A stretch of 64,000 nt of DNA from Gammaproteobacteria bacterium (GTDB lineage Bacteria > Pseudomonadota > Gammaproteobacteria > SZUA-140): NCBI GenBank assembly GCA_016218365.1, contig JACREF010000005.1, positions 130 through 64,129 on the forward strand, read 5' to 3'. Positions 832 through 51,900 of this stretch are shown piece by piece (within the stretch, counting starts at the first letter, position 1; every line of letters begins with the position of its first letter). Both the position numbers and the translations under genes were made by a program. The notes beneath the pieces are model-generated. The model saw nothing but the letters and a program-made list of their open reading frames with translations, was not told the origin of the DNA and made no database searches.

Positions 832-844
832 GGAGCCGCCGGAA

Positions 845-2881
845 TCAGCGCTGCGAAAAATAGGCCGCATGCTCGTCGTCCGGCATCAGGGTTAAGTCAT
901 GCATAAACTTGCCATTACTCGCCTTGTAGCGGTCGAATTCCAGGCGCAGTTCCAGCCGTTTTCCATCGTCCTTGATCGGCTCCAGGTCCATGTTCTCACC
1001 GATCCTGAACAGTGTATCCTCGTTGAGAAAATACATCCCGGAGATATAATCAATCAGATTATTGATGGTGTGCTTCAGCGGATAGTGGTGGATATTGCGC
1101 AATGCAGGGCTCATATCCAGCCCCGAGCCGACCCAGGTGACCCGGTCCGGCGCCTTGATATGATAGTTTTTCTTCAGGAACGCCAGCAGCGATGGCGTGA
1201 TGTCCAGATGCGAGGAGATGGACTTGATCTGCGCCGTGCGCTTCAGCAACGGTGAATAGATGATCAGCGGCACGTGATAGCGATCAACCTTTGTCGCCAG
1301 CGGGATCTCCGGCAACCGGTGATCGCCGGTGATCACAAAGATGGTGTTGTTATAGGATGGCAGCCTCGCCTGCTCCTCGAAATAACGCCGCAGCGCGGCA
1401 TCGGTATAGAGGATGGTCGAATAAATCTTCTGATACTGGCGATATTTCTGTTTTTGATCCTCGGTGAAACCCAGCTGGCTCATGCGCTCCTCGAATAGCT
1501 GCAGATACTGCTGCTGACCGGTCACCGTATAAGGGGTATGCATGCTGATCGTCTGAATATAGTCCAGGTACGGTGTCCGCGCATCATCGCGTTCCGTCAC
1601 CAGCGCCTTGCGCAACACCTCGGCATCCGCGTAACCCCAGTAGGCGTCCGGCAGCCGCGGATAGCCGGGCCCATAATCGTCGGCGCCGATCATCAGATCG
1701 ATGTTCTGGTGTTGCAGAAAGCTGCGCTGGTTATCGAAGTCCAGACCATTACCGCAATAAAAGCGGGTCCGATAGCCGTTGCGCTTCAGGATACTCAGCA
1801 GCGTCAGATGTTTCGGCATCCGCGCCCCCAGGGCATTGAACCCCTCGTCACCAAACGGCAACGACCCCAGGATCGATGGCAACGACGCAAAGGTCCGTCC
1901 CTGGGAGGCCAGGAAGTTCTCCCAGTACAGACTGCTCCCGGCCAGTTCATCGAGAAAGGGCGTGAAGCTGCCGAGGTAGGCATCGGAACCACTGAAGGCC
2001 CGTCCCAGCCCCTCGACTGCGATGAACACGATGCTGGGTGGCGATGCCGGGTTGATTGTGAAATAACTGCCCAATACATCGGGGGTATCGTCGGCGCGCA
2101 GAAACGGGTACTGCGGGTCGAGGGGATCAACCCGAGCAGCCTGTGATGCCGTGTACGACACGGTTCCAGGCACAGCGGAGACGGCAGCGTGTTCACGCTT
2201 GATGAAATAGCGATAGGCGTCTGCAATAAAGAATGCCCCCTTGTTCAGGGCCAGACTGTTTGCAAACTCGTTCTTAAGCGCAGCCCGGGCGGACGGCGCA
2301 GAGATGCCTGAGACTGCCAGGACGATCCCGGAGATCAGGGCAACATACACCACCAGCGGTGTCAGCAGCACGCGCCTGTTGACATCCATCAGTACCATCC
2401 AAAAAACAGTAAATGGCACAACGAAGCTGAGCACAGACAGCATGGAGATCTGGTAACCGGCGCGCGCGGTAACCAGGATATCCGCCAGTGAATAGCCGAA
2501 CAGGTCGGCCCCCAGCGGCACCCGCGTCACGAAGAAGTAATTGACAAGGATCAGATAGCCGGCAAGGACCAGTGAGCCGACGATGCCATAACAGCGGAGA
2601 TCGGCACGCCTGCCACGGAAGACCTGGCGCAGCAGCAGAAACACCGGCAGCAGAAACACGAGCAGCTGCAGCAAGAACAGCAGGTCCGACCAGAACGCCC
2701 GGATGATCAGCGTCGCAAGATCGGCGGGAATCTCGCTCGTCATCGCAACCCCGGCCAGCTCCACACATCGTACCGCCAGGAAGGCAGGCAACAACGCCAA
2801 CGACAGGTTACCGAACTTCAGCAATCCTTCATGCAGCCATGCCAGGCGTGCCGCCGCCCCTGTCGGTATAAAGCTATCCAT
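845..2881 (-). CDS. LTA-synthase / sulfatase-family (alkaline phosphatase superfamily) membrane protein, MdoB/LtaS-like phosphoglycerol- or phosphoethanolamine-type transferase
   Basis: 678 aa; N-terminal multi-TM region followed by sulfatase-type domain with ...NTIFVITGDHRLPEIPLATKVDRYHVPLIIYSPLL... motif typical of the family. Confidence 0.8.
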   Translation of the reverse strand: MDSFIPTGAAARLAWLHEGLLKFGNLSLALLPAFLAVRCVELAGVAMTSEIPADLATLIIRAFWSDLLFLLQLLVFLLPVFLLLRQVFRGRRADLRCYGIVGSLVLAGYLILVNYFFVTRVPLGADLFGYSLADILVTARAGYQISMLSVLSFVVPFTVFWMVLMDVNRRVLLTPLVVYVALISGIVLAVSGISAPSARAALKNEFANSLALNKGAFFIADAYRYFIKREHAAVSAVPGTVSYTASQAARVDPLDPQYPFLRADDTPDVLGSYFTINPASPPSIVFIAVEGLGRAFSGSDAYLGSFTPFLDELAGSSLYWENFLASQGRTFASLPSILGSLPFGDEGFNALGARMPKHLTLLSILKRNGYRTRFYCGNGLDFDNQRSFLQHQNIDLMIGADDYGPGYPRLPDAYWGYADAEVLRKALVTERDDARTPYLDYIQTISMHTPYTVTGQQQYLQLFEERMSQLGFTEDQKQKYRQYQKIYSTILYTDAALRRYFEEQARLPSYNNTIFVITGDHRLPEIPLATKVDRYHVPLIIYSPLLKRTAQIKSISSHLDITPSLLAFLKKNYHIKAPDRVTWVGSGLDMSPALRNIHHYPLKHTINNLIDYISGMYFLNEDTLFRIGENMDLEPIKDDGKRLELRLEFDRYKASNGKFMHDLTLMPDDEHAAYFSQR

Positions 2882-2917
2882 CGCCTACATCAATACCGGG
2901 GCTGTCATCAGGCTGTT

Positions 2918-3700
2918 TCACCAGCGGAACAGCAGGCTGAGCGACAGGCTGCGCTCTGCGAAGGCATTCTTCTCGTCGCTGCTACTGGCCGCAAGCTTGA
3001 CGCCCCACTGCCGGCCATAGTATTTGCGGAACGCGACGCCGATGCTCCGGCTCTTCGTGATATCGAGCACCTGACTTTGATGGCGATATTCCCGGCCGTG
3101 ACTGAAACCACCATTCAGCTCGAGATAATCGTCGCCGTTCCCCGCGTAATAATAACGGGCGATCGCGCGGTGTGACACACCTGGCTCGGCGTCCGATGGA
3201 ATGAAGAGCGTCTTCCAGCGATAATACCAGTCGCCACGGTAGGCGCCGAGCCCGAGTCCGTACATATCAACACGGCTGCTGGTAAAATCCATGTGATCAT
3301 AACTGGCGGCAAGCTCCCACCCCTGCCCGGCCCCCTGGAACAGCTCCACCCGGTAAGCGTCGTCAGGGAAAAACACACTATCAGCTGTATATTGATATCT
3401 GACATTGGCATAGGCCCGGGACCACACATCGAGGTAGCCATCGAGTGCGATGGCTTCGTCGGTCAAGGCGAAACGGCTGGCCTGCAGATACTCGGCAGCG
3501 AGCGAGCCACGTTCCCAATGACGGCGCGCCGACGCACCGTACTCACGCCATTGATCGCGGGCAGGCGAGAAATTGCTGACACCGTAATCGATACTCGCCG
3601 ACCAGCGGGGATCTTCCGGTGTGGCGGCCGCCTCCGCGCTCTGCTCCAGGACGGCCAGCAGCATGCAGACCCCCGCCACCCGCAGCGTTCTTGATTTCAC
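2918..3700 (-). CDS. YaiO-family outer-membrane beta-barrel protein (signal peptide, C-terminal aromatic residue ...LLFRW)
   Basis: 260 aa, N-terminal signal peptide MKSRTLRVAGVCMLLAVLEQSAEAA, alternating hydrophobic/aromatic beta-strand pattern, terminal F-R-W; first gene of a 3-gene minus-strand operon. Confidence 0.5.
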   Translation of the reverse strand: MKSRTLRVAGVCMLLAVLEQSAEAAATPEDPRWSASIDYGVSNFSPARDQWREYGASARRHWERGSLAAEYLQASRFALTDEAIALDGYLDVWSRAYANVRYQYTADSVFFPDDAYRVELFQGAGQGWELAASYDHMDFTSSRVDMYGLGLGAYRGDWYYRWKTLFIPSDAEPGVSHRAIARYYYAGNGDDYLELNGGFSHGREYRHQSQVLDITKSRSIGVAFRKYYGRQWGVKLAASSSDEKNAFAERSLSLSLLFRW

Positions 3701-3829
3701 TATGATTGCATCCCCGAATCAACCGCCCAAGGATAACGGATCACTGACCGCGAATTCAACTGCAGCCGGGGCTGTAACTGAGCTGCCTCAGCAACAGACA
3801 GCGGATGATCCAGGATGTGATCGAGGGCA

Positions 3830-4480
3830 TCATCCTTCGTCAGTCTGTGTCGCGCCGGTCAGCGGCACAAAAATCACCGATAACACTTGCTGCGTATCAT
3901 AATGATCACCTTCGCCACGGGTGATCCGCTGCAGCGACTGGCTGCAATACGGATGACCGACCGGGATCACCAGCCGCCCGCCCGGCTTCAGCTGCTGCAG
4001 CAGCGCCGGCGGCACGGCCTGGGCCGCGGCGGTGACGATGATGCTGTCATACGGTGCATGCTCCGGCAACCCCAACCCGCCATCGCGCTTCTGGACATGG
4101 ACATTGTGATAACCGAGCCTGGACAAGGTCTCGCCGGCCTGCATGGCCAATGAGTCGATGATCTCGATGCTGTAGACGGTCTTGACCAGATGGGACAGCA
4201 CGGCGGCCTGGTAACCGGAACCGGTACCGACCTCCAGCACGGTGTGCCCAGGCTGCGGATCGAGCAGCTGGGTCATCAATGCCACAATGAACGGCTGCGA
4301 TATGGTCTGACCGGCTCCGATGGAGAGTGCGCGATCATCATAGGCATAGTCACGCTGATGCTCCGGCACAAACTCTGCGCGCGGCACGGCGCGCATTGCT
4401 TGCAAAACTCGCGCCGCCAATACTGGACAGCCTGTCAAACTGCCGCACAACGCCGCCTCATGCACGATGGTATCGATCAT
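3830..4480 (-). CDS. pcm: Protein-L-isoaspartate O-methyltransferase
   Basis: Motifs [56 protein letters not shown]; ORF-track start (4594, TTG) is an upstream extension, likely true start MIDTIV ~4480. Confidence 0.85.
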   Translation of the reverse strand: MIDTIVHEAALCGSLTGCPVLAARVLQAMRAVPRAEFVPEHQRDYAYDDRALSIGAGQTISQPFIVALMTQLLDPQPGHTVLEVGTGSGYQAAVLSHLVKTVYSIEIIDSLAMQAGETLSRLGYHNVHVQKRDGGLGLPEHAPYDSIIVTAAAQAVPPALLQQLKPGGRLVIPVGHPYCSQSLQRITRGEGDHYDTQQVLSVIFVPLTGATQTDEG

Positions 4481-4621
4481 CGTGTCCGTCGCTGACAACT
4501 TCTCTTTTCTCACCTGTTCCACTCTGCCATAATGGAAGCCTACAGTCCAATTGGGCACCTGTGCATCACTCACTGTGTTCCGCCGTTGATGCAATGCCGA
4601 TGCCCTGCGCAGGAGGTGCGT

Positions 4622-4918
4622 ATGGCAAGCGTATACCCGGAGATAGGCGTATGGTATCGCGACCTTGAGGGACGCCTGCTGTGCATCACCGCCGTCGATG
4701 ACGATGATCAGAGCATCGAGGTGCAGTATTTCGCCGGCGAGATCGAAGAGTTTGATCTCGAGGTCTGGCGACAGTCACTGATGATCGAGACGGCCCCGCC
4801 CAAGGACCTCAGCGGCTCCTTCGATGATCTGGAGGGAGACGAACGTGGCGATCCCGACAAGGTGTTCTGTCCCGAGGAATGGGGTGGGGCGTTGCGGATG
4901 CTGGAAAAGGCCTCTTGA
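4622..4918 (+). CDS. Small acidic hypothetical protein (~98 aa)
   Basis: ORF 4532..4918; plausible start MASVYPEIGVWYRDLEGRLL... at ~4622; no recognisable family from sequence alone. Confidence 0.35.
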   Translation: MASVYPEIGVWYRDLEGRLLCITAVDDDDQSIEVQYFAGEIEEFDLEVWRQSLMIETAPPKDLSGSFDDLEGDERGDPDKVFCPEEWGGALRMLEKAS

Positions 4919-4924
4919 TAGTGC

Positions 4925-5185
4925 GCCGCGATCCCCTATACGCCCTTCGATACGCGACTGTGTCGCTACTCAGGACAGGCCCTGATGTACCGATCGTGGT
5001 GAGTAGGCGCCCTTCGATACGCGGCTGGGGCCGCTACTCAGGACAGGCTCTAAATGCCGATCGTGGTGAGTAGGCGCCCTTCGATACGCGACTATGTCGC
5101 TACTCAGGACAGGCTCTTCGATATGCAGTCAGGGCTGCTACTCAGGGCAGGCTCAAGCGCCGTATCGAACCATGAACGGTACGGA
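4925..5185. repeat. REP/BIME-like array: ~6 clustered 35-40 nt palindromic units (consensus CCTTCGATACGCGAC-N3-GTCGCTACTCAGGACAGGC plus GCCTACTCACCACGA(A/T)CGG units)
   Basis: Direct reading; same units in both orientations recur at ~22040-22265, ~27890-28255, ~60195-60365. Confidence 0.75.
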
Positions 5186-5186
5186 A

Positions 5187-7616
5187 CTATGCAACCTCAT
5201 CGTCACCGTGGCCGCGTGGTGGCGCGGTATATTCATGCCGCAGGTCGGCCAGATATTGCAGGCGATCGGCCACCGCACGGTTGACCGATCCTTCCGGATA
5301 ATTTCCTGACTCATCGATGCTGCCGGCGCTGATGCCGGTCAGCATCTCCAGCGCCTCATCAACGGAGGAGATGGCATAGATGTGAAAGCGCCCGGCAGCC
5401 ACTGCAGCCACCACGTCGCTGCGCAGCATCAGGTTCAGCATATTGCTGCGCGGGATGATGACACCCTGCTGACCGGTAAGGCCACGGGTAATGCAGACAT
5501 CAAAATAGCCCTCGATCTTTTCATTGACACCACCGATCGGCTGTACCTCGCCGTGCTGGTTCATCGAACCGGTGATCGCCAGCGACTGCCGCACCGGGAT
5601 GCCGCATATCGCCGACAACAGCGCACAGCATTCGGCCAGTGATGCGCTGTCGCCCTCGACGATGCCATACGACTGCTCGAACACGATATTGCCGGTCAGC
5701 GACAACGGCCGCGCATAGGCATAACGTGAACCGATGAACGAGGCCAGGATCAGCACCCCCTTGGAGTGCAAGGCACCACCGAGCTCGACCTCACGCTCGA
5801 TATCGACGATCTCCCCTTCACCGAGCCGCGCCGTCGCCGTCACCCGCGCCGGCAGCGCGAAGCTGAACTCGTCCAGATCGACGACGAACAGGCCATTGAC
5901 GGTACCGGGCTGCATGCCATCGGTGCGGATCAGGATCTGGTCACGCTGGATGGCCTGATGCAGATTGCGGCGCATCCGGTCCTGGCGCTGGACCTGCATG
6001 TCGATGGCCTGCTGCACATCCGGCGCCTCGGCCTGGCTGGCCTTGCGCTCGCGCGCCCAGAAATCGGCCTCGCGCAACAGATCGGCCATACTCAGCCGAT
6101 GGGCCGTCAGCCGGTCGCGATCACCGGCCAGACGCATGCTGTGCTCAATGATCCGGGCCACGGCGCCGGCGCTAAACGGCAACAGCCCTTCACCCCGGAT
6201 CATCGCCGCCATCATCCGGGCATACAGCAGGGCATTGGCGCTGCTGAACTCCAGATGGTCCTCAAAATCGGCCGCCACCTTGAACAGCTCACGGAATTCC
6301 GGGTCATAACTCAATAGCAGGTAATACAACATCCGGTCACCGAGCAGCACCACCTTGATATCAAGCGGGATCGGCTCCGGCTCCAGTGACTGTGTCGCCA
6401 TCAGACCATAGATCTTGCCCAGCGATTCGATGGTCAGCGTCCGGGAACGCAAGGCCCGCTTCAACGCCTCCCAGGCATAGGGCATCGTCAGCACCTTGTG
6501 GGCATCCAGCACCAGGTAGCCGCCGTTGGCCTTATGCAAGGCACCGGCCTTGATCAGCAGGAAATCGGTGACCAGCGCGCCGAGCTGCGACAGGTATTCG
6601 ACGCTGCCCACCAGATTCTGGTGCAACGGGCTGTCTTCATAGCACACCGGCGCCCCATTCTGCTCATGGTGCGACACCAGCACGTTGACGCGGTAGCGGC
6701 GAAACGCCGCCTCGGCCGCGGCATCACCCTGCAACGACGGTGCGCCCTCATCCGGGATCAGGAATTCATTCAAATGGTCTATGACATCATCCTGCAGCGC
6801 GTTGAAATACACCTGCAGCTTGTCCTGGTCACGATAACGGTGGCGCAGCTCATCAATCAGATGCTTGACGGCAAACAGGCCGACATCATCATTGATGGTG
6901 CGGATGCCCTCGCGCATCTCGCGCTGCCATTGCGGGATCTGATGGATGACACTTTGCAGCTGCTCCTGCAGCGCCTTGATCTGCGCGGATATCTCGTCGC
7001 GGCGCTGCTCCGGCAGCGCCTCGAACTCATCGGGCTCGACGACCTTGCTGTCCTGCAACGGCGTGAAGGCGAAGCCCTCGGCCGTTTTCAGTAAAGCAAT
7101 GTCCTTGGTGGCGGCCTCATCGGCCAGGGCATGAAAGGCCTGCTCGCGCCGCTGCTTGTACCTTTCCTCTACCCCATGAATCCGCGCATGATATTCCTCG
7201 GTCTCGAAGGCCAGCGTGATGGCAGTGCGCAGATCCCCCACCAGCCGTTCCATGTCCTGACGGAGCCGGATAGCGGTGCCGGCAGGCAATGACAGCGCCA
7301 TCGGCTGATGCGGGGCGGAAAAGTTATACAGATAACACCAGTCGACGGGCTGCGGGTCCGCCGCTGCCTGCTGCTTGAGATAGCGCTCGACCAGCGTGTG
7401 TTTGCCAATGCCATTGGGGCCGAGCACAAACAGGTTGTAACCCTCGCGCCGGATACCGACGCCGAACCTCAGCGCATCAGTGGCGCGCTGCTGGCCGATG
7501 ATATCGGCGGCCGGCTCCAGTTCAAGGGTAGTGCGAAATGACAGCGTATCAGGATCACAGCGCCGGTACAGCTCCGCCGCAGACAACTCGGTGATTGACA
7601 CACTCGCCCCTCGCAT
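5187..7616 (-). CDS. Lon-protease-family protein (YcbZ/LonH-like): N-terminal AAA+ ATPase, C-terminal Lon S16 proteolytic domain
   Basis: 809 aa; Walker A LGPNGIGKHTL; C-terminal GVLILASFIGSRY...IVFEQSYGIVEGDSASLAECCALLSAICGIPVRQSLAITGSMNQHGEVQPIGGVNEKIEGYF matches Lon Ser-Lys dyad region. Confidence 0.8.
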   Translation of the reverse strand: MRGASVSITELSAAELYRRCDPDTLSFRTTLELEPAADIIGQQRATDALRFGVGIRREGYNLFVLGPNGIGKHTLVERYLKQQAAADPQPVDWCYLYNFSAPHQPMALSLPAGTAIRLRQDMERLVGDLRTAITLAFETEEYHARIHGVEERYKQRREQAFHALADEAATKDIALLKTAEGFAFTPLQDSKVVEPDEFEALPEQRRDEISAQIKALQEQLQSVIHQIPQWQREMREGIRTINDDVGLFAVKHLIDELRHRYRDQDKLQVYFNALQDDVIDHLNEFLIPDEGAPSLQGDAAAEAAFRRYRVNVLVSHHEQNGAPVCYEDSPLHQNLVGSVEYLSQLGALVTDFLLIKAGALHKANGGYLVLDAHKVLTMPYAWEALKRALRSRTLTIESLGKIYGLMATQSLEPEPIPLDIKVVLLGDRMLYYLLLSYDPEFRELFKVAADFEDHLEFSSANALLYARMMAAMIRGEGLLPFSAGAVARIIEHSMRLAGDRDRLTAHRLSMADLLREADFWARERKASQAEAPDVQQAIDMQVQRQDRMRRNLHQAIQRDQILIRTDGMQPGTVNGLFVVDLDEFSFALPARVTATARLGEGEIVDIEREVELGGALHSKGVLILASFIGSRYAYARPLSLTGNIVFEQSYGIVEGDSASLAECCALLSAICGIPVRQSLAITGSMNQHGEVQPIGGVNEKIEGYFDVCITRGLTGQQGVIIPRSNMLNLMLRSDVVAAVAAGRFHIYAISSVDEALEMLTGISAGSIDESGNYPEGSVNRAVADRLQYLADLRHEYTAPPRGHGDDEVA

Positions 7617-7801
7617 GAATGTATTGATACGGACAGCTCACGGCTGACGCCGCCGCCAACACACCGTAGCAAATTTGCACTGCAGCGACAAGCAATGCCA
7701 TGCGACGCCAGGCAGTTATTCCCTGATGGATAGTATGAAAAATAGAGTGGCGCGAACGCACCGCATCAGCTGACCGGGAGGATCCTGTACCGGGACGTGG
7801 C

Positions 7802-8389
7802 CTATCCGGCCAGGCGTTTCTCCAGCATCGCGATCTGCTTGTTGATCTCCTCGGAGATATTGATCAGCTCCTGGCGGGCGAACAGATTCTCGACCTGGAT
7901 CTGGATCAGCCGGGCCACACGCTCCAGCAGCTGCTTGTCCTGCTCATCAAAATGCAGACCGCGTTTCTTGTTCAACACCTCGACAGCCCCGGTGACCCGC
8001 TGGCGGCTGGCGCCAAAGATCGGGACGCAGATGGCCGTATAGGTGATGAAGCCGGTCTTGATTGCCACCGCATCGTGGGCACCAATCTGGTTATCGAGAT
8101 CGTTCTCGATGACCGCCTCCCCGCTGCTGATGACCCGCCCGACCAGTGAGGTGCGTACCGGGACCGTCAGCTCCTGGGCCTGCAGACCGGTGCCGGCATG
8201 CAGCCAGACATCGTTCTTGACCGGATCATGGATGAAGATGCCGCAACGCTCGGCATCCAGCAGCCTGGGAAGGATATCGACAAAAAAATCCAGCAGTTCG
8301 CGATTGACGGTCTTCTGCCAGGTCTTGTTGATCATCTGCTGACGGGCCTTCAGCTCGTCGATCCGTTTCAGTGCCTGTGCCTTATCCAT
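7802..8389 (-). CDS. GAF-domain protein
   Basis: 195 aa, GAF-like core (CGIFIHDPVKNDVWL...VPIFGASRQRVTGAVEVLNKK) flanked by coiled-coil-like N and C termini. Confidence 0.65.
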   Translation of the reverse strand: MDKAQALKRIDELKARQQMINKTWQKTVNRELLDFFVDILPRLLDAERCGIFIHDPVKNDVWLHAGTGLQAQELTVPVRTSLVGRVISSGEAVIENDLDNQIGAHDAVAIKTGFITYTAICVPIFGASRQRVTGAVEVLNKKRGLHFDEQDKQLLERVARLIQIQVENLFARQELINISEEINKQIAMLEKRLAG

Positions 8390-8452
8390 GACGCCGTCCT
8401 CATATGGGCTTACCTCCGCTGTAGCGGCAGCCCACGGCCAGACTTCAGTGGT

Positions 8453-9301
8453 TCAGGCGGCCTGTTGCACCTGCAGGATATCAAGCATTTGATCAAGATA
8501 TAGACAGGACTTGTAGTAGGCATTATGCAGCTGCTGTTCGGACAGGCCGGCAACGAGCATCACCGCTTCGAGCTGTGCGGTAACGGCCGGCGGGTCGACC
8601 TCGCCACCGCCGATCGGGTCGGCGACCAGGTCGGCAATGTTCAGCAGCGCCGCACCCAGCGGAAAATTGACCGCCGCCGCAGGCTGATGGTGGCAGCTGA
8701 CGATCTCCTGCAGAAACGGTGGCAAACGCCAGCTCAGCATCAGCTCGCGGCCGACATCGGCGTGGCTGAACCCCAGCTCCCGGGTCTCGATGTCATGCAG
8801 CGGGGTCTTCATGTTGTCAGCGCGCTGACGCAGTTCAGCGCTGATCTCCGGCAATTTTTCCGCAATCACCAGCTCACCAAGATGCGACATCAATCCGGCG
8901 ACAAACATCGGCTCGGTGTATAACAGGTTGCACTCGACCGCCAGCTCCCGGTTCATCGCCGCACACGCCAGGCTGCGACGCCAGAAGGCCCGGCCATCGA
9001 TGCCGGCGAGTTTCAGCGTGGAGAATTTACTGACAATGGCCGCGGACAGGACCATGTCACGCAGGCCTTTGGTGCCGACCAGCGTCACCGCACGGGAGAT
9101 CGAATCGATGCGGCCACTCATGCCGTATAACGGGCTGTTGGCAAGCTTCAGTACCTTGGCCGACAGCTCCAGGTCCAGCGCCATGGCGTCGGCAATCTGC
9201 TTGGCGGAGGCGGTGCGTTCGACGAGCTCATTGATCTGCAGCACATTCTCCGGCAATGAAAAGCTGCCCCGTGCACCGCGTACCATATCCTGTGGTGTCA
9301 T
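8453..9301 (-). CDS. HDOD-domain signalling protein
   Basis: 282 aa; LKLANSPLYGMSGRIDSISRAVTLVG, FWRRSLACAAMNRELA, HDIETRELGFSHADVGRELMLSWRLP are HDOD hallmarks. Confidence 0.8.
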   Translation of the reverse strand: MTPQDMVRGARGSFSLPENVLQINELVERTASAKQIADAMALDLELSAKVLKLANSPLYGMSGRIDSISRAVTLVGTKGLRDMVLSAAIVSKFSTLKLAGIDGRAFWRRSLACAAMNRELAVECNLLYTEPMFVAGLMSHLGELVIAEKLPEISAELRQRADNMKTPLHDIETRELGFSHADVGRELMLSWRLPPFLQEIVSCHHQPAAAVNFPLGAALLNIADLVADPIGGGEVDPPAVTAQLEAVMLVAGLSEQQLHNAYYKSCLYLDQMLDILQVQQAA

Positions 9302-39699: not shown

Positions 39700-39870
39700 T
39701 AGGGAAGCTCCGATCAATTCAAAAATTACCACAGCCGTCATTCCCGCGAAAGCGGGAATCCAGGTGTTCCAAGTATTTATGGATGCCCGCTGGAGCCTGC
39801 CCTCGACCTCGATCGGGGGCGGGCATGACGACAATTCGAATTAATTCAGAGCTTCCCTGCATTAACACGA
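39700..39870. mobile_element. MITE-like element, family 2 (copy a): TIRs ...CTCTGATTAATTCAAAAATTACCACAG / ...ATTCGAATTAATTCAGAG; internal hairpins GTCATTCCCGCGAAAGCGGGAATCC and GCCCGC-N-GCGGGC
   Basis: Direct reading; copies at ~51775-51900 (truncated), ~63660-63811 (perfect TIRs), fragment ~48478-48548, TIR-only palindromes ~26866-26893 and ~40548-40600. Confidence 0.7.
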
Positions 39871-43189: not shown

Positions 43190-43978
43190 TCAATCCTTCG
43201 TCGCAACCAGTGAGATGCTCTTCACGCCATATTTTCGCGCCGCACCCTGGGCGTTCTCTGAAATGAACAGGTACTGCGGGTTGTCCCTCAATTTCGTCAC
43301 GCGCAACCCCGCCGCCTCGATCGCCGAGGTGTAATCACCGATCTGCATCGCGCCCCCGATGCACGCGGCCCACAGCGTCGCGTCGCAGGTGATGCCTTCA
43401 GGCAGCGGCGCTTCAGTGACGATGTCGGCGAGGGCAAGCCGCCCGCCCGGCTTGAGCAGGCGCGCGGCCTCGCGGAAGACCGTCCTTTTGTCCGGTACGA
43501 GATTAATCACGCCGTTGCTGATGACCGCATCGCACGACGCGTCAGCAAGCCCGGTCGCGTCGATGTAGCCCTTGCGGTAGGTGATGTTGCCGAGTCCCGC
43601 GGCGGCACGCAGGCGTTCCGATTTGGCGAGCTGTTCATCGGTCATGTCGACGCCGATTACGGTGCCCGTCTTGCCGACCTTGCCGGCGGCGATGAAGCTG
43701 TCCGTCCCCGACCCGCTGCCCAGATCGACCACCGTCTCGCCCGGCTTCAGATGAGCGAGGTCAAAGTAATAGCCCACACCCGCAAACGAGGCGATGGCTG
43801 CACTCGGGATGGCATCGAGGTCGGCGGGCACATAGCCAAGCCGCTCCGCGAGCGCACGGCCCATTTCGAAGTGGAACTCGCCAAGCGGATCGAGGGCCAC
43901 ATCGCGATACATCGCCTTGACCTTCTGCTCGAGCGCGGCTGTGTCGACGCGCTTTGCGTGTACTGTTGCAGTATCCAT
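43190..43978 (-). CDS. ArsM-like class I SAM-dependent methyltransferase (Methyltransf_31)
   Basis: [13 protein letters not shown] motif I, conserved Cys residues (ASCD, TCD) as in arsenite methyltransferases; probable start MDTATV. Confidence 0.7.
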
Positions 43979-44239
43979 TTTGATTCCTCCCATCGGTGGT
44001 GGAGCCCGTAAGAGATTATAGTGCGAGCATCGGCTCCGATACGCTCACCGAACATTGCGCTTGAGGCAGGCGTGTTGCAACGCACCACACGTCACTCTCG
44101 AAGCGCTTGATAGGCGCCTGCATAGGCTTACAGATGTGAAAGTGCATTTTGCACAACCTGAGCCACAGATTCTTCACGTAAAACCTTCCGCTTGCAATAC
44201 CTTGACTGAAGCCACTCTTTTGGTTACTTAGAATCAAAA

Positions 44240-44318
44240 GATATCAAAAGGGGCGGATTCTATTGAAATGATAGATACTCACCAGCCCTGGGTATACGAT
44301 TTCAATCGAATCTGACCC
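44240..44318. repeat. 78-bp direct repeat copy A (AAGATATCAAAAGGGGCGGATTCTATTGAAATGATAGATACTCACCAGCCCTGGGTATACGATTTCAATCGAATCTGACCC), left boundary of low-GC island
   Basis: ~95% identical copy at ~49340-49416; internal 14-bp inverted arms GATTCTATTGAAAT / ATTTCAATCGAATC. Confidence 0.8.
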
Positions 44319-44319
44319 T

Positions 44320-44405
44320 TTTGCTCTTTTCGTCCTGACCCTTTTGCTCTTTTCGTCCCGATTATTCGTCTCCCGATTACGCGTCCCGATTACGCCCGCC
44401 GCGAT
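44320..44405. repeat. Short tandem repeats: 2x CCCTTTTGCTCTTTTCGTCC then ~4x CCCGATTACGC(G) units
   Basis: Direct reading immediately inside island boundary. Confidence 0.7.
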
Positions 44406-44418
44406 TACGCCGCGTTCC

Positions 44419-44862
44419 TTAATAAATACTCTTGGCAGCCTTCTTCTTTGGCGACTCAATATTCGCACGCGAAGGATCATGGAAAAAGTGCTGGCAGTGC
44501 ATGCATCGCCAACCGGTAATTTCATTCTTGAGCGGAGTAACGATCTTTGTTGCTCGGCACTTTGCACAGTATCTGAGCGCAGTGAAGTGACTTACCCATG
44601 TTCCTGTCGGTTCATCCCATTGGAGCCAAGGGCGCTGAAGGAACAAGAATGCAAATAGAACCAAGCACAGCGACAGCAATAGTGCCAATAGTTTTAGGAC
44701 TGTCGTTGGCTGTTGTGCTTCCAGGGATGCCAATCGTGGCGCCAGGCTATCTTGGAGAAGCAGCACAATTCCTGGCGGTGTCGTGGCTAATAGAATCAGC
44801 GCTAGTGGCAACCACCACTTTTTTAGAAATTCACCAAGGGGCATCATTTGGGACCCTAACAC
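44419..44862 (-). CDS. Hypothetical membrane protein with C-terminal CxxC...CxxC zinc-ribbon (island cargo)
   Basis: 147 aa; two hydrophobic helices then ...YCAKCRATKIV...WRCMHCQHFFHD; low-GC codon usage distinct from flanks. Confidence 0.4.
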   Translation of the reverse strand: MLGSQMMPLGEFLKKWWLPLALILLATTPPGIVLLLQDSLAPRLASLEAQQPTTVLKLLALLLSLCLVLFAFLFLQRPWLQWDEPTGTWVSHFTALRYCAKCRATKIVTPLKNEITGWRCMHCQHFFHDPSRANIESPKKKAAKSIY

Positions 44863-44925
44863 GTTTGAGTTCAGCGGCGCGCCGCTTTTTGGCGCGTCCG
44901 CTGGAACGATTTGTTAGCGGCATTT

Positions 44926-45663
44926 TCACCGAAGTCTCGCGGCCTCTGCGGCAACGTGGCCAGCCAGAGCCGTGACAAATGTTCTGAGTCCTGTCATCGC
45001 CGACATCTCTGAAAACTCACCACTCTCAGCAGAACTGCGGGGCGACGTGATGAGGGCGGCAGTGGTGTAAAGCTGTTCCTTTACCAATTTCTGACAGAGT
45101 AAGTCATACCGGATGAGGTACGACGCCCCCTTAAACTCCTTGAAAACAGGAAAGTGCGGTGACGAATCCCTAACCGCACATCTGGATTTTGGGGCATCCT
45201 CAACCATCATCAACCAGCCAACGAAAGGGCGTGGTTGTTTGCCAAATGCCTCTTCACGGTAGGCTGTCCAGAGATCGTGCGCGGTGCCAATGGCTTCCTC
45301 GGTTCGATTGTTGAAGTTGTTCCCGAACGAGCCAACTTGGCTTTTCAGCTCGATGGCCGCGATCAACTCGCCTTTGTAGATGACAAGAAGATCCCAGAGC
45401 TTTGTCGGCCTGAAGTAGCCGGGCAGTGTCAGCATCGCCCTGTTCCGATGAATCTCGGCATGGGCAAGTCCATTGGCCCGCACGATGTCGAGTACCAAAG
45501 CCAGGAATCCGTCCATGTTCTTGCCAGCGGTAACACCAGCGCGCTCACCTTGGTCAGCCTTCCCGGACTCAATCTGCTTTTGTCTCGCTGCTTCCCGGTT
45601 TCCCCAGAAGGCTTTTACAGCCTCATGTGCCTTCTGTTCGTAATCGACAAGATCAAGCGCCAT
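44926..45663 (-). CDS. Type II restriction endonuclease, XhoI/PaeR7I-like
   Basis: 245 aa (R.PaeR7I is 246 aa), start overlaps stop of upstream N6A-MTase gene as in the PaeR7I R-M operon (M then R); family assignment by recollection of fold/size, not by alignment. Confidence 0.5.
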
Positions 45664-47403
45664 TTATTCTCCGTTGCCTCCAAGGGAGGATCGTTCTTCG
45701 TTGCTAAGTCCAAATAGTTTAAATACTGCGCGATTGCAGGCTTGCAAATCTCTCTTTTTTGCAGCGTCCGCTAGCTCCGTCCGCAACTTTGTCGAGACAT
45801 CCGCCCATTGCGGAATGCGGATGCGACGTAGGTATTGCGCCTGAAACCGGAGGAATCCGCCGCGCATTTTGGTTGAGTAGGTCGTCATGAATAGACGTGT
45901 AACGGCTGAAAGCATCACAGCTTGTAATGCCCTCAAGTCCCACTCGTCGGACGTGACATAGTAAAGGTTGTGGTGCGGGTACAGCTCCCCACCCTCAAAA
46001 ACTATATGGGCCTCGCCCTTGATGTCGGGAATCAGGAGCTTCGGCCTCGATGCCAGCTCTGGAGTAATACGGTCGATCGTGCGATACCAGTTGGCCGGGG
46101 TCTTCTGGGCGCAGTGACGACCCACGATAACCTCTCGTCGCACCTCCAAATAGCGGAGCAGGCGCGGATAGTTCCGTAACTCGACAAGACCGCCACCCTC
46201 GGCAAATGGATTGATTACGCCTTGGCCGTGCCATTGCACCTCGCCGGACATAATGTCTTTCGTTGTAACCAGCGGCAGTTTGCGATCAGACTCCACGTCG
46301 AGTGCGTCAAAGTCGCCGATATATGCCTTATCCGCGCCAGTTGCTACGCCGATACCCACCTTGCAGCCCACCTCTTCCAATCTAGGGAATTGTTTTTCAA
46401 GGCGGCGAATCAGCGCCATCTGATCCGACGATTCAAGCAACCACGGCTCCGACCCATTGGTGACTCGTGCCAGTTCGCGCACCGGCCCGGGTTCTTTCGG
46501 CAGGCTCCGCGCACGTAGCGTGTCGGCCAAGATCGCCAGCGTGGCCTGGTCGATGGTAGGGCGATGAGCAATGCGCGTCGCACCGGGTGTATCCCTGCTG
46601 ATGACGGTGATGGCCGGATAGGCGATCACCTCGGAGTGGAACGCTGGGGTGTCCATCATATCGACGTAGATTTTCAGGTGGAACTGCTCAGCCACGAGAC
46701 TGCGAAGCGGACCACCGTAACGGTTTTTCATCCAGCGATCTGCGCAAATAAAGCCCAAGCTGCCGCCTTGTTTGAGCACCATTAACGACCGCTCGATGAA
46801 CGGAATGTAGATGTCGGCCCGGTCATACATCGTCTGGTAGCGGCTACGGTACTCGGCCAGCAACGGTGTTGGAATCAGCTCTTGGCGAACATAGGGAGGG
46901 TTCCCTACAACAAAGTCGAATTGCCCTTCAAGTGGTGCAAGAAGGAAATCCCCCTGCACAAGCCAACGATCAGCAAGAGCTACTGCGGATTGATCCCCTA
47001 TCTCATCTTGCTTGAGCCGCTCGATCACGGCTGCGCGGGTGGTAGAAAAGGTCTTGCGATGCAGTTCAACAGCGCGAATTGCGTCGCCTAACTCTTCAAC
47101 TACAGTTCCTGCGTGTTGCGATGACCTCCATGCTGCCAGCAGTCGCCCGATTGCTGGTAATAGAAAGTCACCCCCACCGAATGAAGGTTCTAAAAGTCGT
47201 TTTTCATGGAGCGGTTGATCCTCCGTGTAGCCAGCCAAATCGAGGATGAAATCCACCACCTCGGTGCGTGTAAAGATTGCCCCGCGAGATTCGGCTCCTG
47301 CTGCTGTAGACAATTTTTCAATCGCAGCAGCGACCATAGGCGAATGTGTGCAAACCGAATCACCAAATAAATCAAAATTAAGCTGCCTTGATGCCAAGTT
47401 CAT
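45664..47403 (-). CDS. Type II N6-adenine DNA methyltransferase (gamma class, Eco57I/PaeR7I-M-like)
   Basis: 579 aa; catalytic motif [13 protein letters not shown], motif I region [12 protein letters not shown]; upstream partner of the endonuclease. Confidence 0.8.
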
Positions 47404-47458
47404 ATTCCTATTTGATCTGTGCTTATTGCTCGACTAGCCGCTAACGTAAATTAGCTGG

Positions 47459-47857
47459 CTACGCACCATCTACGGCTTTCTTTATTGCGTCAAAGGTGAA
47501 GGACATGGCCCATTTCGCGCCGACATTTAGCAAACCTGAAGGTGTGGTATTTTGAGAATCCGTTTTTACAGCAACGATCTTCCTCTTGAGTTCGACAGCC
47601 TTGCTAATCTCCCAGGCAACCCATTTACTTATATTGGTTTTTTTCCCAACGATACACAGAAAATACGTCGCATTATTTATCTTCGCGGAGATGGCCCGCT
47701 TTATTGCAGCAGCATCCGTGCTGTCAATCGAAACGTCTGCTGAATGATCGGTGAAACCAAAGTCAAACTCTTTGTTGGCATCCCATGCCAGCAGCATGTT
47801 TTTGTAGTTCCGGTCGTTATCGTAATCGTAGCTAATGAATATCGTTTTCTTAGCCAT
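47459..47857 (-). CDS. TIR-like domain protein (DUF1863/MTH538-type)
   Basis: 132 aa; MAKKTIFISYDYDND...AIKRAISAKINNATYFLCIVGKKTNISKWVAWEI pattern of DUF1863 TIR-like domains; overlaps preceding SLATT gene by ~8 nt. Confidence 0.6.
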   Translation of the reverse strand: MAKKTIFISYDYDNDRNYKNMLLAWDANKEFDFGFTDHSADVSIDSTDAAAIKRAISAKINNATYFLCIVGKKTNISKWVAWEISKAVELKRKIVAVKTDSQNTTPSGLLNVGAKWAMSFTFDAIKKAVDGA

Positions 47858-48341
47858 GTTGTTTCTCTTTTTCGTTAGTGATATGTGCCCAAGTTGTGTT
47901 TTCTTTCGAAATTACGCCTTCCACGCGCTCGACGAGCGCGTGGAAGGCGTCATCTTCGTTATATGGCGATGTCTTTGTCATATAGAGGAATTTCTCGTGC
48001 TTGAGCGTTTCCGCCACCGTTCGGTACTCAATCCAGTTCTCTTGGAATTTATATAAGGTCACCAGACCGGAGATCACAGCAACGCAAACCGCTATTACGC
48101 CAACAATACCCTTGAGGTAATGCGTGTCGTTAGTGATTTCACTTACAAAAAACGGGATGCTCATTGCAAACACAATCTCAAGTACGCGGAGCCCTCTAAA
48201 CCATTTCTGGTTCCATTGACTCTTCTGTCCGTACCAGGCAATTTGATCATCGAGCCGATCTCGAATGTACTCTTCTGGTGACATGCGTACTCCTGTTGTT
48301 TTGCCGCTAACAGTATTTAGACGGCCGCCGCCTAGCATCAA
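47850..48341 (-). CDS. SLATT-domain protein (DUF4231, predicted 2-TM membrane effector)
   Basis: 163 aa; MSPEEYIRDRLDDQIAWYGQKSQWNQKWF, two TM helices (VLEIVFAMSIPFFV / IVGVIAVCVAVISGLV), ...YRTVAETLKHEKFLYMT; start may be internal M (MSPEEY). Confidence 0.6.
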   Translation of the reverse strand: MMLGGGRLNTVSGKTTGVRMSPEEYIRDRLDDQIAWYGQKSQWNQKWFRGLRVLEIVFAMSIPFFVSEITNDTHYLKGIVGVIAVCVAVISGLVTLYKFQENWIEYRTVAETLKHEKFLYMTKTSPYNEDDAFHALVERVEGVISKENTTWAHITNEKEKQHG

Positions 48342-48577
48342 CCGATTTGTTGTTGATCACTTATATGTCCAGCGTATAGAAGAGCGCAGTATGGCGCAAG
48401 ATCCCGGAGGAACATGGCATCTTCGCAGCGGGACATTGAGCGGCGTCACGACATGATAGGCCGCCAGCATGGCATAAACCTGCCAACTGGACTCCCGCTG
48501 CAGCCTGCCCTCGACCTCGATCGGGGGCGGGAATGACTCCTGGAGAGCGAGGCAATAACGGCAACGGGCTAATCCCT

Positions 48578-49340
48578 TTATCGGTCACGGCGCAGCCGGC
48601 CCAGCCCTTCCAGCAGCCGGTCGATACGGCCCCACAGCTGTTCACGCAACCGCGCAGCCAGCCCGCGCTGATGCCAGTCTGGATAGCGGATCTCGATGCA
48701 GTCACGCAGATCACCGTCGATGACCGCACAAACTTGGTCGGCGAACGGCTGATCATCGATCTCCTGATTGGCCTCCAGATTCCAGTGCAAGTTCCAGCGG
48801 TCGAAGTTGCTGGAGCCGATCGACACCCAGTCATCGCAGATCACCGCCTTGGCATGCATGAAGCGCGGCTGATATTCAAACACCCGCACGCCGGCACGCA
48901 GCAGCGGGCTGTAGAAGCGCCGCCCGGCATGGGCGATTGCTGGGTGGTCGCTGACCGGGCCGGGCAGCAGCAACCGGACATCGACACCGCGCTGCGCCGC
49001 CTGCCGCAATGCGCGCAGCGTGCGCCGGGATGGCACGAAATAGGCGGTCATCAGCCAGATGCGGCGCTCCGCGCCTTGCAGCCGGTAGTACAATGAACGG
49101 CGGATGTCCTGCACCCGCAACGCGACCGTTGACGCCATCGGTGACGGTTGCATCTGTGATATTGATACTTGAGTCAATCGGCGTGATCGGGCTGCGGTGC
49201 TGCTCGCGCCACACCTGCATGAACAGCGCCTGCCAGTCGACCAGCACTGCGCCTTCGATGCTGAGCATGTGCTCGCGCCAGCTGCGTTGCGGCCGGCGCG
49301 GGTGGTCAAAGTCATCGCTGAGGCCGGCGCCGCCGACAAG
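48578..49340 (-). pseudogene. 3' fragment of cardiolipin-synthase-like phospholipase D gene (second HKD domain intact, upstream part frameshifted, N-terminus missing)
   Basis: C-terminal FMHAKAVICDDWVSIGSSNFDRWNLHWNLEAN HKD motif in ORF 48578..49369; preceding cls-like segment IEGAVLVDWQALFMQVWREQ lies in a different frame (ORF 48876..49268); no first HKD; abuts repeat B. Confidence 0.6.
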
Positions 49341-49416
49341 ATATCAAAAGGGGCGGATTCTATTGACATGAGAGATACTCACCAGCCCTGGGTACGATTT
49401 CAATCGAATCTGACCC
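49340..49416. repeat. 78-bp direct repeat copy B, right boundary of low-GC island
   Basis: AAGATATCAAAAGGGGCGGATTCTATTGACATGAGAGATACTCACCAGCCCTGGGTACGATTTCAATCGAATCTGACCC. Confidence 0.8.
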
Positions 49417-49569
49417 ACTGCTGCCTCGGCATCGACGATAGGCGATTCCTTGCGACCAAGCATCGCGACCTTTTCAGGTATGATATCAAGGGCGACTACT
49501 TCATTGTGCTACGCAAGCAGCATGGCATTGGATAAACCGACATAGCCGGTGCCAGCGATGGCAATTTTC
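49417..49569 (-). pseudogene. ugd: 5' stump of UDP-glucose 6-dehydrogenase gene (ugd), ~50 codons, with in-frame TAG at codon ~21, truncated at repeat B
   Basis: Manual minus-strand translation [48 protein letters not shown] then reads into repeat B; matches Ugd N-terminus (E. coli [39 protein letters not shown]...SPIVD). Confidence 0.7.
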
Positions 49570-49629
49570 ATATCCTGCCTTTTTTGTGACTGAGCATCTG
49601 CCCTACCTGTGTATCACAATCGTGCCGGG

Positions 49630-50643
49630 TTACCTTGCTTGGGTTTTTGCCCGGTACTCTGTGTAAACTTTATTTAAACCGGCCTTCAAGGCTACACGAG
49701 CCTGCCAGCCCAGCCCCGATAAACGGGTGACATCCAGCAGTTTGCGTGGCGTGCCGTCCGGCTTGCTGGTATCAAACACCAGCTTGCCTGAGAAACCAAC
49801 GACCTCCTTGATCTGCTCGGCCAGCTCGCGGATCGTCAGGTCCTCGCCGCAGCCGACATTGACCAGTGGCAGCGTTGCAGGATTAACTTGTGAACTGAAC
49901 TGATCATCCGGCAGGTTCATCAGATAGACGCAGGCATCGGCCATGTCGTCGCTGTACAGGAACTCGCGGCGCGGTGTGCCGCTGCCCCACACCACAACCT
50001 CGTTGTCACCGCGCTGTTTGGCCTCATGCATCTTGCGGATCAGTGCCGGCAATACATGGGAGGTATTCAAATCAAAATTGTCGCCGGGCCCGTACAGGTT
50101 GGTCGGCATCACCGCCAGGTATTGGGTGCCATACTGGCGGTTATACGACCAGCACATCTCGATGCCGGCGATCTTGGCGATCGCATACGGCCGGTTGGTA
50201 GTCTCCAGCGGTCCGGTCAGCAGATACTCTTCCCTGATCGGTTGCGGGCAGTCACGCGGGTAGATGCACGAGGAGCCGAGAAACAGCAGCCGCTTGACGC
50301 CAACCCGCCATGCCTCATGGATGACATTGGTCTGGATTACCAAGTTCTGGTGGATGAACTCGGCCGGATAGGTGTTATTGGCGAGGATGCCGCCGACCTT
50401 GGCGGCGGCCAGGAACACGTAGTCCGGCCGCTGCGTTTCAAAAAATGCCCGCACCGCCTGCTGGTCGGTCAAGTCGAGTTCGGCGTGGCTGCGGGTGATG
50501 ATGTGGGTGTAGGGTGCCGTCCCCTCTCCCCGGCCCTCCCCCCGCAGGGGGGAGGGGGACGTAGCGGATGCCAGACGACGCAGCAAGGCCGAACCGACCA
50601 GGCCGCGGTGACCGGCGACATAGATGCGTGCATCCGGATTCAT
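49630..50643 (-). CDS. fcl: GDP-L-fucose synthase
   Basis: 337 aa collinear with E. coli Fcl ([41 protein letters not shown]); contains a ~17-aa in-frame low-complexity insertion near N-terminus. Confidence 0.9.
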
Positions 50644-51774: not shown

Positions 51775-51900
51775 TAATGTATGGGAAACTCTGATTAATT
51801 CAAAATTACCACAGCTGTCATTCCCGCGAAAGCGGGAATCCAGGTATTACAGGACGTTGTGGATGCCCGCTTCATGATGCCTGCTTCCAATTTGTGATTA
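51775..51900. mobile_element. MITE-like family 2, truncated copy b, flanked by ~35-bp direct duplication of the gmd start/leader (GCCCGCTTCATGATGCCTGCTTCCAATTTGT)
   Basis: Direct reading: left TIR and CATTCCCGCGAAAGCGGGAATCC hairpin present, right end replaced by repeat of 51740-51775. Confidence 0.65.

Follow-up and report, generated by a model that had tools for sequence, protein, structure and literature searches.

What do two small overlapping genes, one for a SLATT-domain membrane protein and one for a minimal TIR-domain protein, do beside a restriction-modification (R-M) system in a gammaproteobacterial genome? The pair lies in a 64,000-nt stretch of contig JACREF010000005.1 (Gammaproteobacteria bacterium, assembly GCA_016218365.1), which was analysed as a whole and is called the window below. 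An earlier reading of the letters without database searches, here the sequence-only reading, had offered the pair as a candidate uncharacterised defence module. Our analysis points, with a probability of roughly 85%, to a type VII Thoeris anti-phage system of the Bacillus type, in which a single-SLATT_1 effector gene (thsH) stands upstream of, and overlaps, a minimal thsB, and which would act by the mechanism proposed below. The following features of the window carry this assignment.

47850-48284, minus strand: thsH, a 144-aa SLATT_1/DUF4231 protein, putative membrane effector with two transmembrane helices and a cytoplasmic helical bundle
47459-47857, minus strand: thsB, a 132-aa minimal TIR-domain protein, predicted cyclic ADP-ribose (cADPR) synthase with catalytic Glu83 in the motif WVAWEI
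47850-47857, minus strand: 8-nt overlap of the thsH stop and the thsB start, ATGGCTAA, read from the sequence
48290-48294, minus strand: ribosome-binding site of thsH, AGGAG, 5 nt before the ATG at 48284, read from the sequence
47451-48313, minus strand: transferable two-gene cassette, with 85% DNA identity over 864 nt to the metagenomic loci L078 and L079

The gene pair and its two proteins

Both minus-strand open reading frames (ORFs) are present and intact in the ORF list, in the order thsH, then thsB. The SLATT frame as called mechanically runs from a TTG at 48341 to 47850; however, the SLATT homologues of 144-146 aa all open with MSPEEY or MTPEEY, equivalent to the ATG at 48284, and since the AGGAG also stands 5 nt upstream of that ATG we take it, and not the TTG, as the real start. 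The segment from GTTAGC to AGGAG upstream of thsH is kept in the related cassette L078. The two small minus-strand genes with an overlap of about 8 nt described in the sequence-only reading are thereby borne out, the overlap being exactly 8 nt (47857-47850), and an identical overlap is found in many homologous loci (e.g. L003, L004, L015, L016, L020, L033, L039 and L078).

The 132-aa protein, which had been read as DUF1863/TIR-like, matches Pfam PF08937 (1.2e-20), the family formerly called DUF1863 and currently named ThsB_TIR in Pfam, as well as the PADLOC model ThsB1 (3.4e-19). Its Glu83 aligns with the glutamate of the WVRYEI motif in the ThsB structures 6LHY and 9B7D and is invariant across every alignment made. 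The AlphaFold2 model (pLDDT 81.4) has EcThsB2 (8v6t, TMq 0.75) as its top fold match in the PDB, and further matches are ThsB (9b7d, 6lhy), a B. cereus TIR and the TIR domains of SPARTA. The TIR-like assignment is therefore upheld by both profile and fold.

The earlier assignment of the upstream protein to the two-transmembrane DUF4231/SLATT family also stands: it matches DUF4231 (1.8e-24) and SLATT_1 (4.7e-15) in Pfam and SLATT_1 in NCBIfam (2.2e-40), and has two hydrophobic helices at residues ~30-48 and ~57-77. In its AlphaFold2 model (pLDDT 85.6) the helices span residues 3-48, 55-78, 80-102 and 113-142. The first transmembrane helix is the C-terminal part of helix 3-48 and is followed by a short acidic loop and the second (55-78), after which helices 80-102 and 113-142 are cytoplasmic. 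Taking alignment and model together, nearly all invariant residues are found in the three cytoplasmic helices, and the transmembrane helices are variable. The invariant positions are Y6, R10, Q14, W17, Y18 and S22 in the first helix (K21 is nearly invariant), E82, Y87, R88, E92 and H96 in the second cytoplasmic stretch (K95 and K98 nearly so), and V118, E122, S126, E128 and W132 in the third, a pattern that is consistent with a cytoplasmic ligand or oligomerisation site. No PDB entry was matched by sequence, and the best hits of the fold search, designed helical bundles at E 0.098, are not meaningful. Among the PADLOC models, ThsH gave a marginal match to RTasSLATT (E 0.0099, 52 residues) and a weak match to the CBASS '2TM' effector (E 0.0036).

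A side observation concerns the thsH coding sequence, where the AFHALVERVEG codons (47914-47950) form a perfect 17-bp stem with a 3-nt loop and a 51-nt segment folds as RNA at -35.6 kcal/mol. In L078 the same peptide is encoded by a degraded palindrome (-7.6 kcal/mol). The hairpin was considered as a conserved regulatory element and rejected, as it is not kept even in this closest relative; being specific to the window copy, it is possibly a quasi-palindrome 'corrected' by template switching.

Likeness to type VII Thoeris and to other systems

Operons of TIR and SLATT genes were described as type VII Thoeris (ThsB plus ThsH) by Yirmiya et al. (bioRxiv, December 2025; 10.64898/2025.12.03.692087), who cloned six of them and obtained phage protection from three, those of an Alteromonadales metagenomic scaffold, Pseudohongiella nitratireducens and Bacillus licheniformis SCCB 37. 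The statement in the sequence-only reading that such a pair has no demonstrated function has thus been overtaken, and the window pair is a further copy of an already described system, type VII Thoeris. Conservation of the TIR-SLATT neighbourhood in Firmicute phages had been noted computationally in 2022 by Iyer, Burroughs and Aravind-group authors, who predicted for it a membrane effector regulated by a derivative of ADP-ribose (ADPR) (PMC9503650). Type VII Thoeris already serves as a cADPR reporter or biosensor in a second preprint (10.64898/2026.04.20.719644).

The closest validated system is that of B. licheniformis SCCB 37. With the TIR domain of its ThsB the window TIR shares 55% identity (E 2e-41), and with that of Bacillus sp. 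P003 (same cluster, 2727267812) 57%; only local alignments of ~25-30% identity were obtained with the TIRs of the Alteromonadales scaffold and of Pseudohongiella, both from other clusters. Homology of the effector was judged through contig L196, on which a search with the validated B. licheniformis TIR domain found a near-identical copy (P0241, 98% identical). On L196 a 150-aa SLATT_1 protein is encoded upstream of the TIR gene and overlaps it, and this protein is 43% identical to the window SLATT over 140 of 144 residues (E 2e-42). In Bacillus altitudinis (L055), the TIR is 75% identical to the validated one and its SLATT partner 42% identical to that of the window. In both the window and the B. 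licheniformis system the TIR protein is ~132-134 aa long with the motifs FISYDYDND and W.WEI, and in both the window and L196 a single SLATT_1 effector of ~145-150 aa is encoded upstream in an overlapping gene. The window TIR differs from the SCCB 37 ThsB in lacking a 3-residue insertion, the gene overlap is 8 nt as against 4 nt in L196, and the host genome, Gram-negative-like and of high GC, is not that of a Bacillus.

The Alteromonadales system, compared through proxy loci with 95%-identical TIRs, also combines a ThsB-type TIR with a SLATT effector, the C-terminal SLATT_1 half of which is 28% identical to the window protein. However, this effector is a 290-aa SLATT_3+SLATT_1 tandem with ~4 transmembrane helices encoded downstream of the TIR, whereas the window has a single SLATT encoded upstream, and the two TIRs align at ~30% identity in a 71-residue local match. 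Given the homology to L196 and L055 on the one hand and the tandem effector of Alteromonadales on the other, we place the window pair in a Bacillus-type, single-SLATT sub-architecture of type VII. It has a ThsB-type TIR with the catalytic glutamate and a SLATT transmembrane effector in the same operon, both proteins are homologous to those of a validated system (the effector by proxy), and the pairing is conserved across unrelated genomes.

Other known systems share parts of this organisation. Type VIII Thoeris (ThsB plus ThsI, a CMP-hydrolase/TPR effector) has the TIR clade and the reported signal, cADPR, in common with the window; its effector is nevertheless soluble and enzymatic where that of the window is a membrane protein, and no TPR-S protein adjoins the window pair in the ORF list or by Pfam. 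Type I Thoeris of Bacillus cereus MSX-D12 has the same ThsB-type TIR fold and catalytic glutamate and the same logic of a synthase and an activated effector, with a ThsB of ~190 aa as opposed to 132 aa. The type I effector, ThsA, is a SIR2-SLOG protein that degrades nicotinamide adenine dinucleotide (NAD+), and its signal is 3'cADPR; Pfam, PADLOC and NCBIfam gave no SIR2 or SLOG matches in the window. In regard to type II, no Macro domain was matched among the scanned adjacent proteins, and the effector is a SLATT_1 protein. CBASS with 2-TM/SLATT effectors likewise has a SLATT-family membrane effector, but there the signal generator is a CD-NTase/SMODS protein and not a TIR, and no CD-NTase was found among the genes adjoining the pair (ORF list, Pfam, PADLOC). 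The SLATT effectors of CBASS (Burroughs et al. 2015) are thought to be activated by a nucleotide second messenger (via 10.64898/2025.12.03.692087). As for DRT systems, Pfam detected no reverse-transcriptase domain near the SLATT gene.

Partners, signal and proposed mechanism

A scan with the TIR alignment, at one genome per species, gave 76 loci in many phyla, and the counts that follow use the 62 in which the TIR is at least 49% identical to that of the window. A short SLATT gene lies directly upstream of the TIR in 22 of the 62 genomes, mostly with the same 8-nt overlap; a long tandem SLATT is adjacent in 7, and a ~417-aa TPR-S protein, in a type VIII-like arrangement, in 25. Overall, a SLATT or TPR-S protein is encoded within 8 kb of the TIR in 59 genomes and neither is in the other three. 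Among 80 IMG/VR viral or prophage contigs with a related SLATT_1, the TIR is directly downstream in 73, and these TIRs fall into several different clades. Co-conservation, on which the sequence-only reading depended, is thus supported both in the genomes and in the viral contigs. Relatives are also present in phages and satellites of Staphylococcus, Streptococcus and Enterococcus, and on plasmids of Acinetobacter and others.

Both thsH and thsB are under purifying selection. Compared with L078, the TIR gene has a dN/dS of 0.07 and the SLATT gene one of 0.15; against distant loci dS is saturated, with dN of 0.16-0.25 (TIR) and 0.38-0.55 (SLATT) and protein identities of 70-78% and 44-52%, respectively. 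The recurrence of the pair in the same order in many unrelated genomes, together with purifying selection on both genes, argues that it is more than a chance neighbourhood.

Several loci of the same TIR clade are organised differently. In L002, L006, L007, L009, L011 and L018, the clade is part of a larger operon with a ~320-aa tandem SLATT_3+SLATT_1 protein and a 132-aa TIR, and operons of the L002 type also encode a ~330-aa protein with a TGT-like C-terminus and, ~2.2-2.3 kb downstream, a second ThsB-type TIR. L077 (JGI 3300082211 contig, 564-9277) carries a TIR 95% identical to that of the window on a Tn7-like element (TnsB-like and TniQ/TnsD genes). This locus has no SLATT; its TIR stands beside TPR-S, trypsin-TPR-S and metallophosphatase proteins, and another TIR operon, comprising a TIR-TGT fusion together with OGG and QueC genes (Cap9/10/11-like), lies upstream. 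Since the L077 TIR is 95% identical and adjoins TPR-S and trypsin proteins without SLATT, near-identical TIRs are rewired to different effectors. In L080, by comparison with the window, the SLATT is 76% identical and the TIR only 69%, although in other loci it is invariably the TIR that is better conserved. This discordance suggests recombination between thsH and thsB, with which the L077 homology breakpoint at window position 47883, in the 3' end of thsH, agrees.

In regards to the signal, Yirmiya et al. (10.64898/2025.12.03.692087) found that all three protective TIRs, which come from three different TIR clusters, made canonical cADPR strictly after infection, and that added cADPR, but not 2'cADPR or 3'cADPR, arrested the growth of system-carrying cells. 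Their Table S1 lists for cluster 2727267812, that of the B. licheniformis TIR, the partners 'SLATT - Type VII' and 'CMP hydrolase - Type VIII', and the effectors of both types respond to cADPR. As the cluster of the window TIR spans two types that are both cADPR-responsive, the signal probably carries over to the window TIR; that it would be specifically canonical cADPR we hold with somewhat lower confidence than the assignment to type VII, by analogy with these homologues.

The same two-component logic could also operate with another NAD-derived signal (2'cADPR, 3'cADPR or an ADPR conjugate) to which ThsH would be tuned. TIRs of one fold do yield different isomers across Thoeris types (10.64898/2025.12.03.692087), and the sole cluster member with a measured product shares only 55% identity with the window TIR. 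We nonetheless consider another signal unlikely, given that the three assayed type VII TIRs all make canonical cADPR in spite of belonging to three clusters, that SLATT and TPR-S proteins are the only partners of the window clade and cADPR is what the validated effectors of types VII and VIII respond to, and that a 95%-identical TIR adjoins TPR-S effectors.

For the type VII system that we favour, the following sequence of events is proposed. Phage infection would activate the 132-aa ThsB, which, through Glu83, would cyclise NAD+ to canonical (N1-linked) cADPR. The cADPR would bind the conserved cytoplasmic helical bundle of the two-transmembrane ThsH, which would then oligomerise in the inner membrane and breach it, so that the infected cell would stop growing ahead of the release of phage progeny (abortive infection). 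From the homologues in the preprint we carry over, by analogy, protection against phages, cADPR synthesis on infection and toxicity specific to cADPR. We infer the sensing step, the cADPR-binding site, ThsH oligomerisation and pore formation, the last three after AlphaFold 3 models in which ThsH forms a membrane-spanning oligomer with positively charged pockets between protomers (10.64898/2025.12.03.692087). The mechanism suggested in the sequence-only reading survives in that the TIR would act upstream of a two-transmembrane membrane effector, but not in its NAD+-depleting NADase or its direct gating, as the TIR is predicted to be a synthase whose diffusible product activates the effector.

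That NADase option amounts to a TIR that is itself the killer by NAD+ depletion, as in SPARTA and the TIR-containing CBASS effectors, with SLATT as an anchor, a sensor or an unrelated neighbour. The model of the window TIR does also resemble the TIR domains of SPARTA TIR-APAZ proteins. However, its top Pfam and PADLOC matches are ThsB signalling TIRs. SLATT and TIR genes are very tightly linked, and within the clade SLATT is exchanged for other proteins of the effector kind, as is typical of a signal generator. The toxicity of external cADPR, moreover, requires a signal-responsive effector other than the TIR (10.64898/2025.12.03.692087), and we therefore regard killing by the TIR as highly improbable.

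A further proposal, which is possible but doubtful, concerns what the 132-aa ThsB clade would sense, namely a conserved, host-derived consequence of infection and not a phage protein, which would make it a 'universal' infection sensor. ThsB proteins of the clade are 70-95% identical across many phyla at saturated synonymous sites and evolve 2-3 times more slowly than their own effector, and near-identical copies are wired to SLATT, to TPR-S (labelled CMP hydrolase in the preprint) or to TPR-S/trypsin proteins. The idea of a universal cue comes from this conservation; sensors in phage defence usually behave in the opposite way and evolve fast.

The cassette and the island around it

Homology between the window and L078/L079 comprises exactly the two genes with ~30 nt before and 8 nt after them, beyond which the sequences are unrelated. 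The neighbours also differ: L078 is beside a type I R-M system and an AlbA_2 protein, and L080 beside toxin-antitoxin genes. As the homology ends at the cassette and the neighbours differ, the pair is an autonomous mobile cassette and no part of the XhoI-type R-M system next to it, and the two-gene defence module of the sequence-only reading is sustained. The surrounding features of the window are as follows.

45664-47403, minus strand: N6-adenine type II DNA methyltransferase of the Eco57I/TaqI_C type, a neighbour outside the system (Pfam Eco57I 2.6e-24; PADLOC MTase_II 2.9e-272)
44926-45663, minus strand: XhoI-family type II restriction endonuclease, a neighbour outside the system (Pfam XhoI 8e-104; PADLOC REase_II 1.3e-126)
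44238-44318, no strand: left copy of a direct repeat of ~80 nt, from the repeat search
49338-49416, no strand: right copy of the ~80-nt direct repeat, from the repeat search, abutting a truncated 5' fragment of ugd

The SLATT-TIR pair and the XhoI-type R-M genes might instead be one co-dependent system of four genes. All four share one strand, and only 55 nt, in which no terminator-like site is predicted, separate thsB from the methyltransferase gene. We find this scarcely credible, since the DNA homology to related cassettes ends exactly at the limits of the two genes, the relatives are found beside type I R-M and AlbA_2 genes, toxin-antitoxin genes, prophage ends and on plasmids, and the validated systems were cloned as two-gene operons (10.64898/2025.12.03.692087).

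Just outside both ends of the cassette, near where homology to related cassettes stops, there are two hairpin-like elements of 23 nt (48303-48325 and 47437-47459) with the form GCCGCTAAC-N6-TTAGNNGGC and 17 of 23 positions identical. Only half of each is kept in related cassettes. Since the search pattern was derived from its own two copies, the expected count of 0 is circular; the elements may be due to chance or may mark the cassette boundaries.

The wider setting agrees with the defence island that the sequence-only reading had described, with the type II R-M genes adjacent, a GC content of 0.43-0.47 across the pair vs ~0.60 in the window, and the direct repeats. The two repeat copies consist of a 57-nt part (96% identical) and a 24-nt part (100% identical) with a 2-nt indel between them, have no third copy within the window, and bound a 5.1-kb segment. 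Besides the R-M genes and the Thoeris pair, this segment contains a 147-aa ORF and a fragment of a phospholipase D (PLD)/cardiolipin-synthase gene. The last of these is a C-terminal, frameshifted cls fragment (48578-49369, minus strand) with a host-like GC of 0.63-0.66. Outside the right repeat there is a ugd stub (49417-49571, minus strand), a 48-codon N-terminal remnant of a UDP-glucose/GDP-mannose dehydrogenase with an in-frame TAG, which adjoins intact fcl and gmd genes; the remainder of ugd was not found beyond the left repeat. We found no tRNA or tmRNA in the window and no Rfam match in 43900-49700, and neither between the repeats nor next to them is there an integrase, a transposase or a tRNA. 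The repeats were considered as a tRNA-type attachment site, but this is not obvious with no tRNA and no integrase between them. On the whole, the picture resembles that of a polysaccharide-synthesis locus into which a defence island has been inserted, with deletions.

Some further elements of the island and the window may be mentioned. The 147-aa ORF (44419-44862, minus strand), which follows the XhoI endonuclease gene on its downstream side, codes for hydrophobic stretches and a C-terminal CxxC...CxxC motif; it has no Pfam, NCBIfam or PADLOC match and may be an unannotated island gene. Between the left repeat and this ORF (44312-44410), a perfect 23-nt unit occurs twice and is followed by CGTCCCGATTACG-related units at 13-15-nt spacing. 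At ~39700-39800 and 51780-51900, the ORF translations of both strands repeat the strings SFPRKRESR...LWMPA and IPAFAGMT, which indicates a short interspersed palindromic repeat (REP-like element) in intergenic sequence. Exact-sequence look-ups gave no match for the window TIR and Gmd proteins; only the XhoI endonuclease was matched, on a 1,760-nt Logan contig of SRR12113407 (L162). This contig is 100% identical to window positions 44280-46039, and that sample therefore contains the same strain, or else the same island.

The state of the island raises the question of whether the pair could be an inert passenger, i.e. a recently acquired or decaying cassette that is unexpressed or non-functional in this host. 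The frameshifted cls fragment within the 5.1-kb segment and the ugd stub with its in-frame stop beyond the right repeat would fit such a history, no sigma-70-like promoter was scored upstream of the pair, and in a heterologous host three of the six type VII operons showed no activity (10.64898/2025.12.03.692087). On the other hand, both ORFs are intact with all family-invariant residues kept and a good ribosome-binding site, dN/dS is 0.07-0.15 with respect to the nearest relative, and the adjoining R-M genes are intact too, which makes an inert cassette improbable.

A number of points do weigh against the assignment to a working type VII system. As the island holds decayed genes, the pair may not be expressed in its host, and the promoter and terminator scan was uninformative (1 promoter-like site vs 3.9 expected, none upstream of thsH). 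The signal is assigned from a TIR with which that of the window shares 55% sequence identity, and searches of the PDB by sequence and by fold found no solved SLATT structure. The key source on type VII is an unreviewed preprint (10.64898/2025.12.03.692087), in which three of the six operons gave no protection in B. subtilis, two of these three, from Bacillus sp. P003 and B. nitratireducens BM02, being in the TIR cluster of the window. In the same preprint the Alteromonadales copy, the type VII system studied in most depth, is the source of the cADPR toxicity assays and of the AlphaFold 3 hexamer, and the transfer of that hexamer and its pocket from a tandem to a single-SLATT ThsH may fail.

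The main value of the finding is a correction of annotation, as the pair should be labelled type VII Thoeris (thsH-thsB). In the 2023 PADLOC set the TIR alone is caught, as ThsB, and its SLATT partner lacks an adequate model, so that such copies may stay unassigned. The window adds a Gram-negative, high-GC case of the Bacillus-type single-SLATT architecture, in which the pair moved as an 864-bp cassette into a defence island beside an R-M system. If the ThsB clade were indeed a universal infection sensor, the single-SLATT ThsH would be the smallest known cADPR-gated membrane effector.

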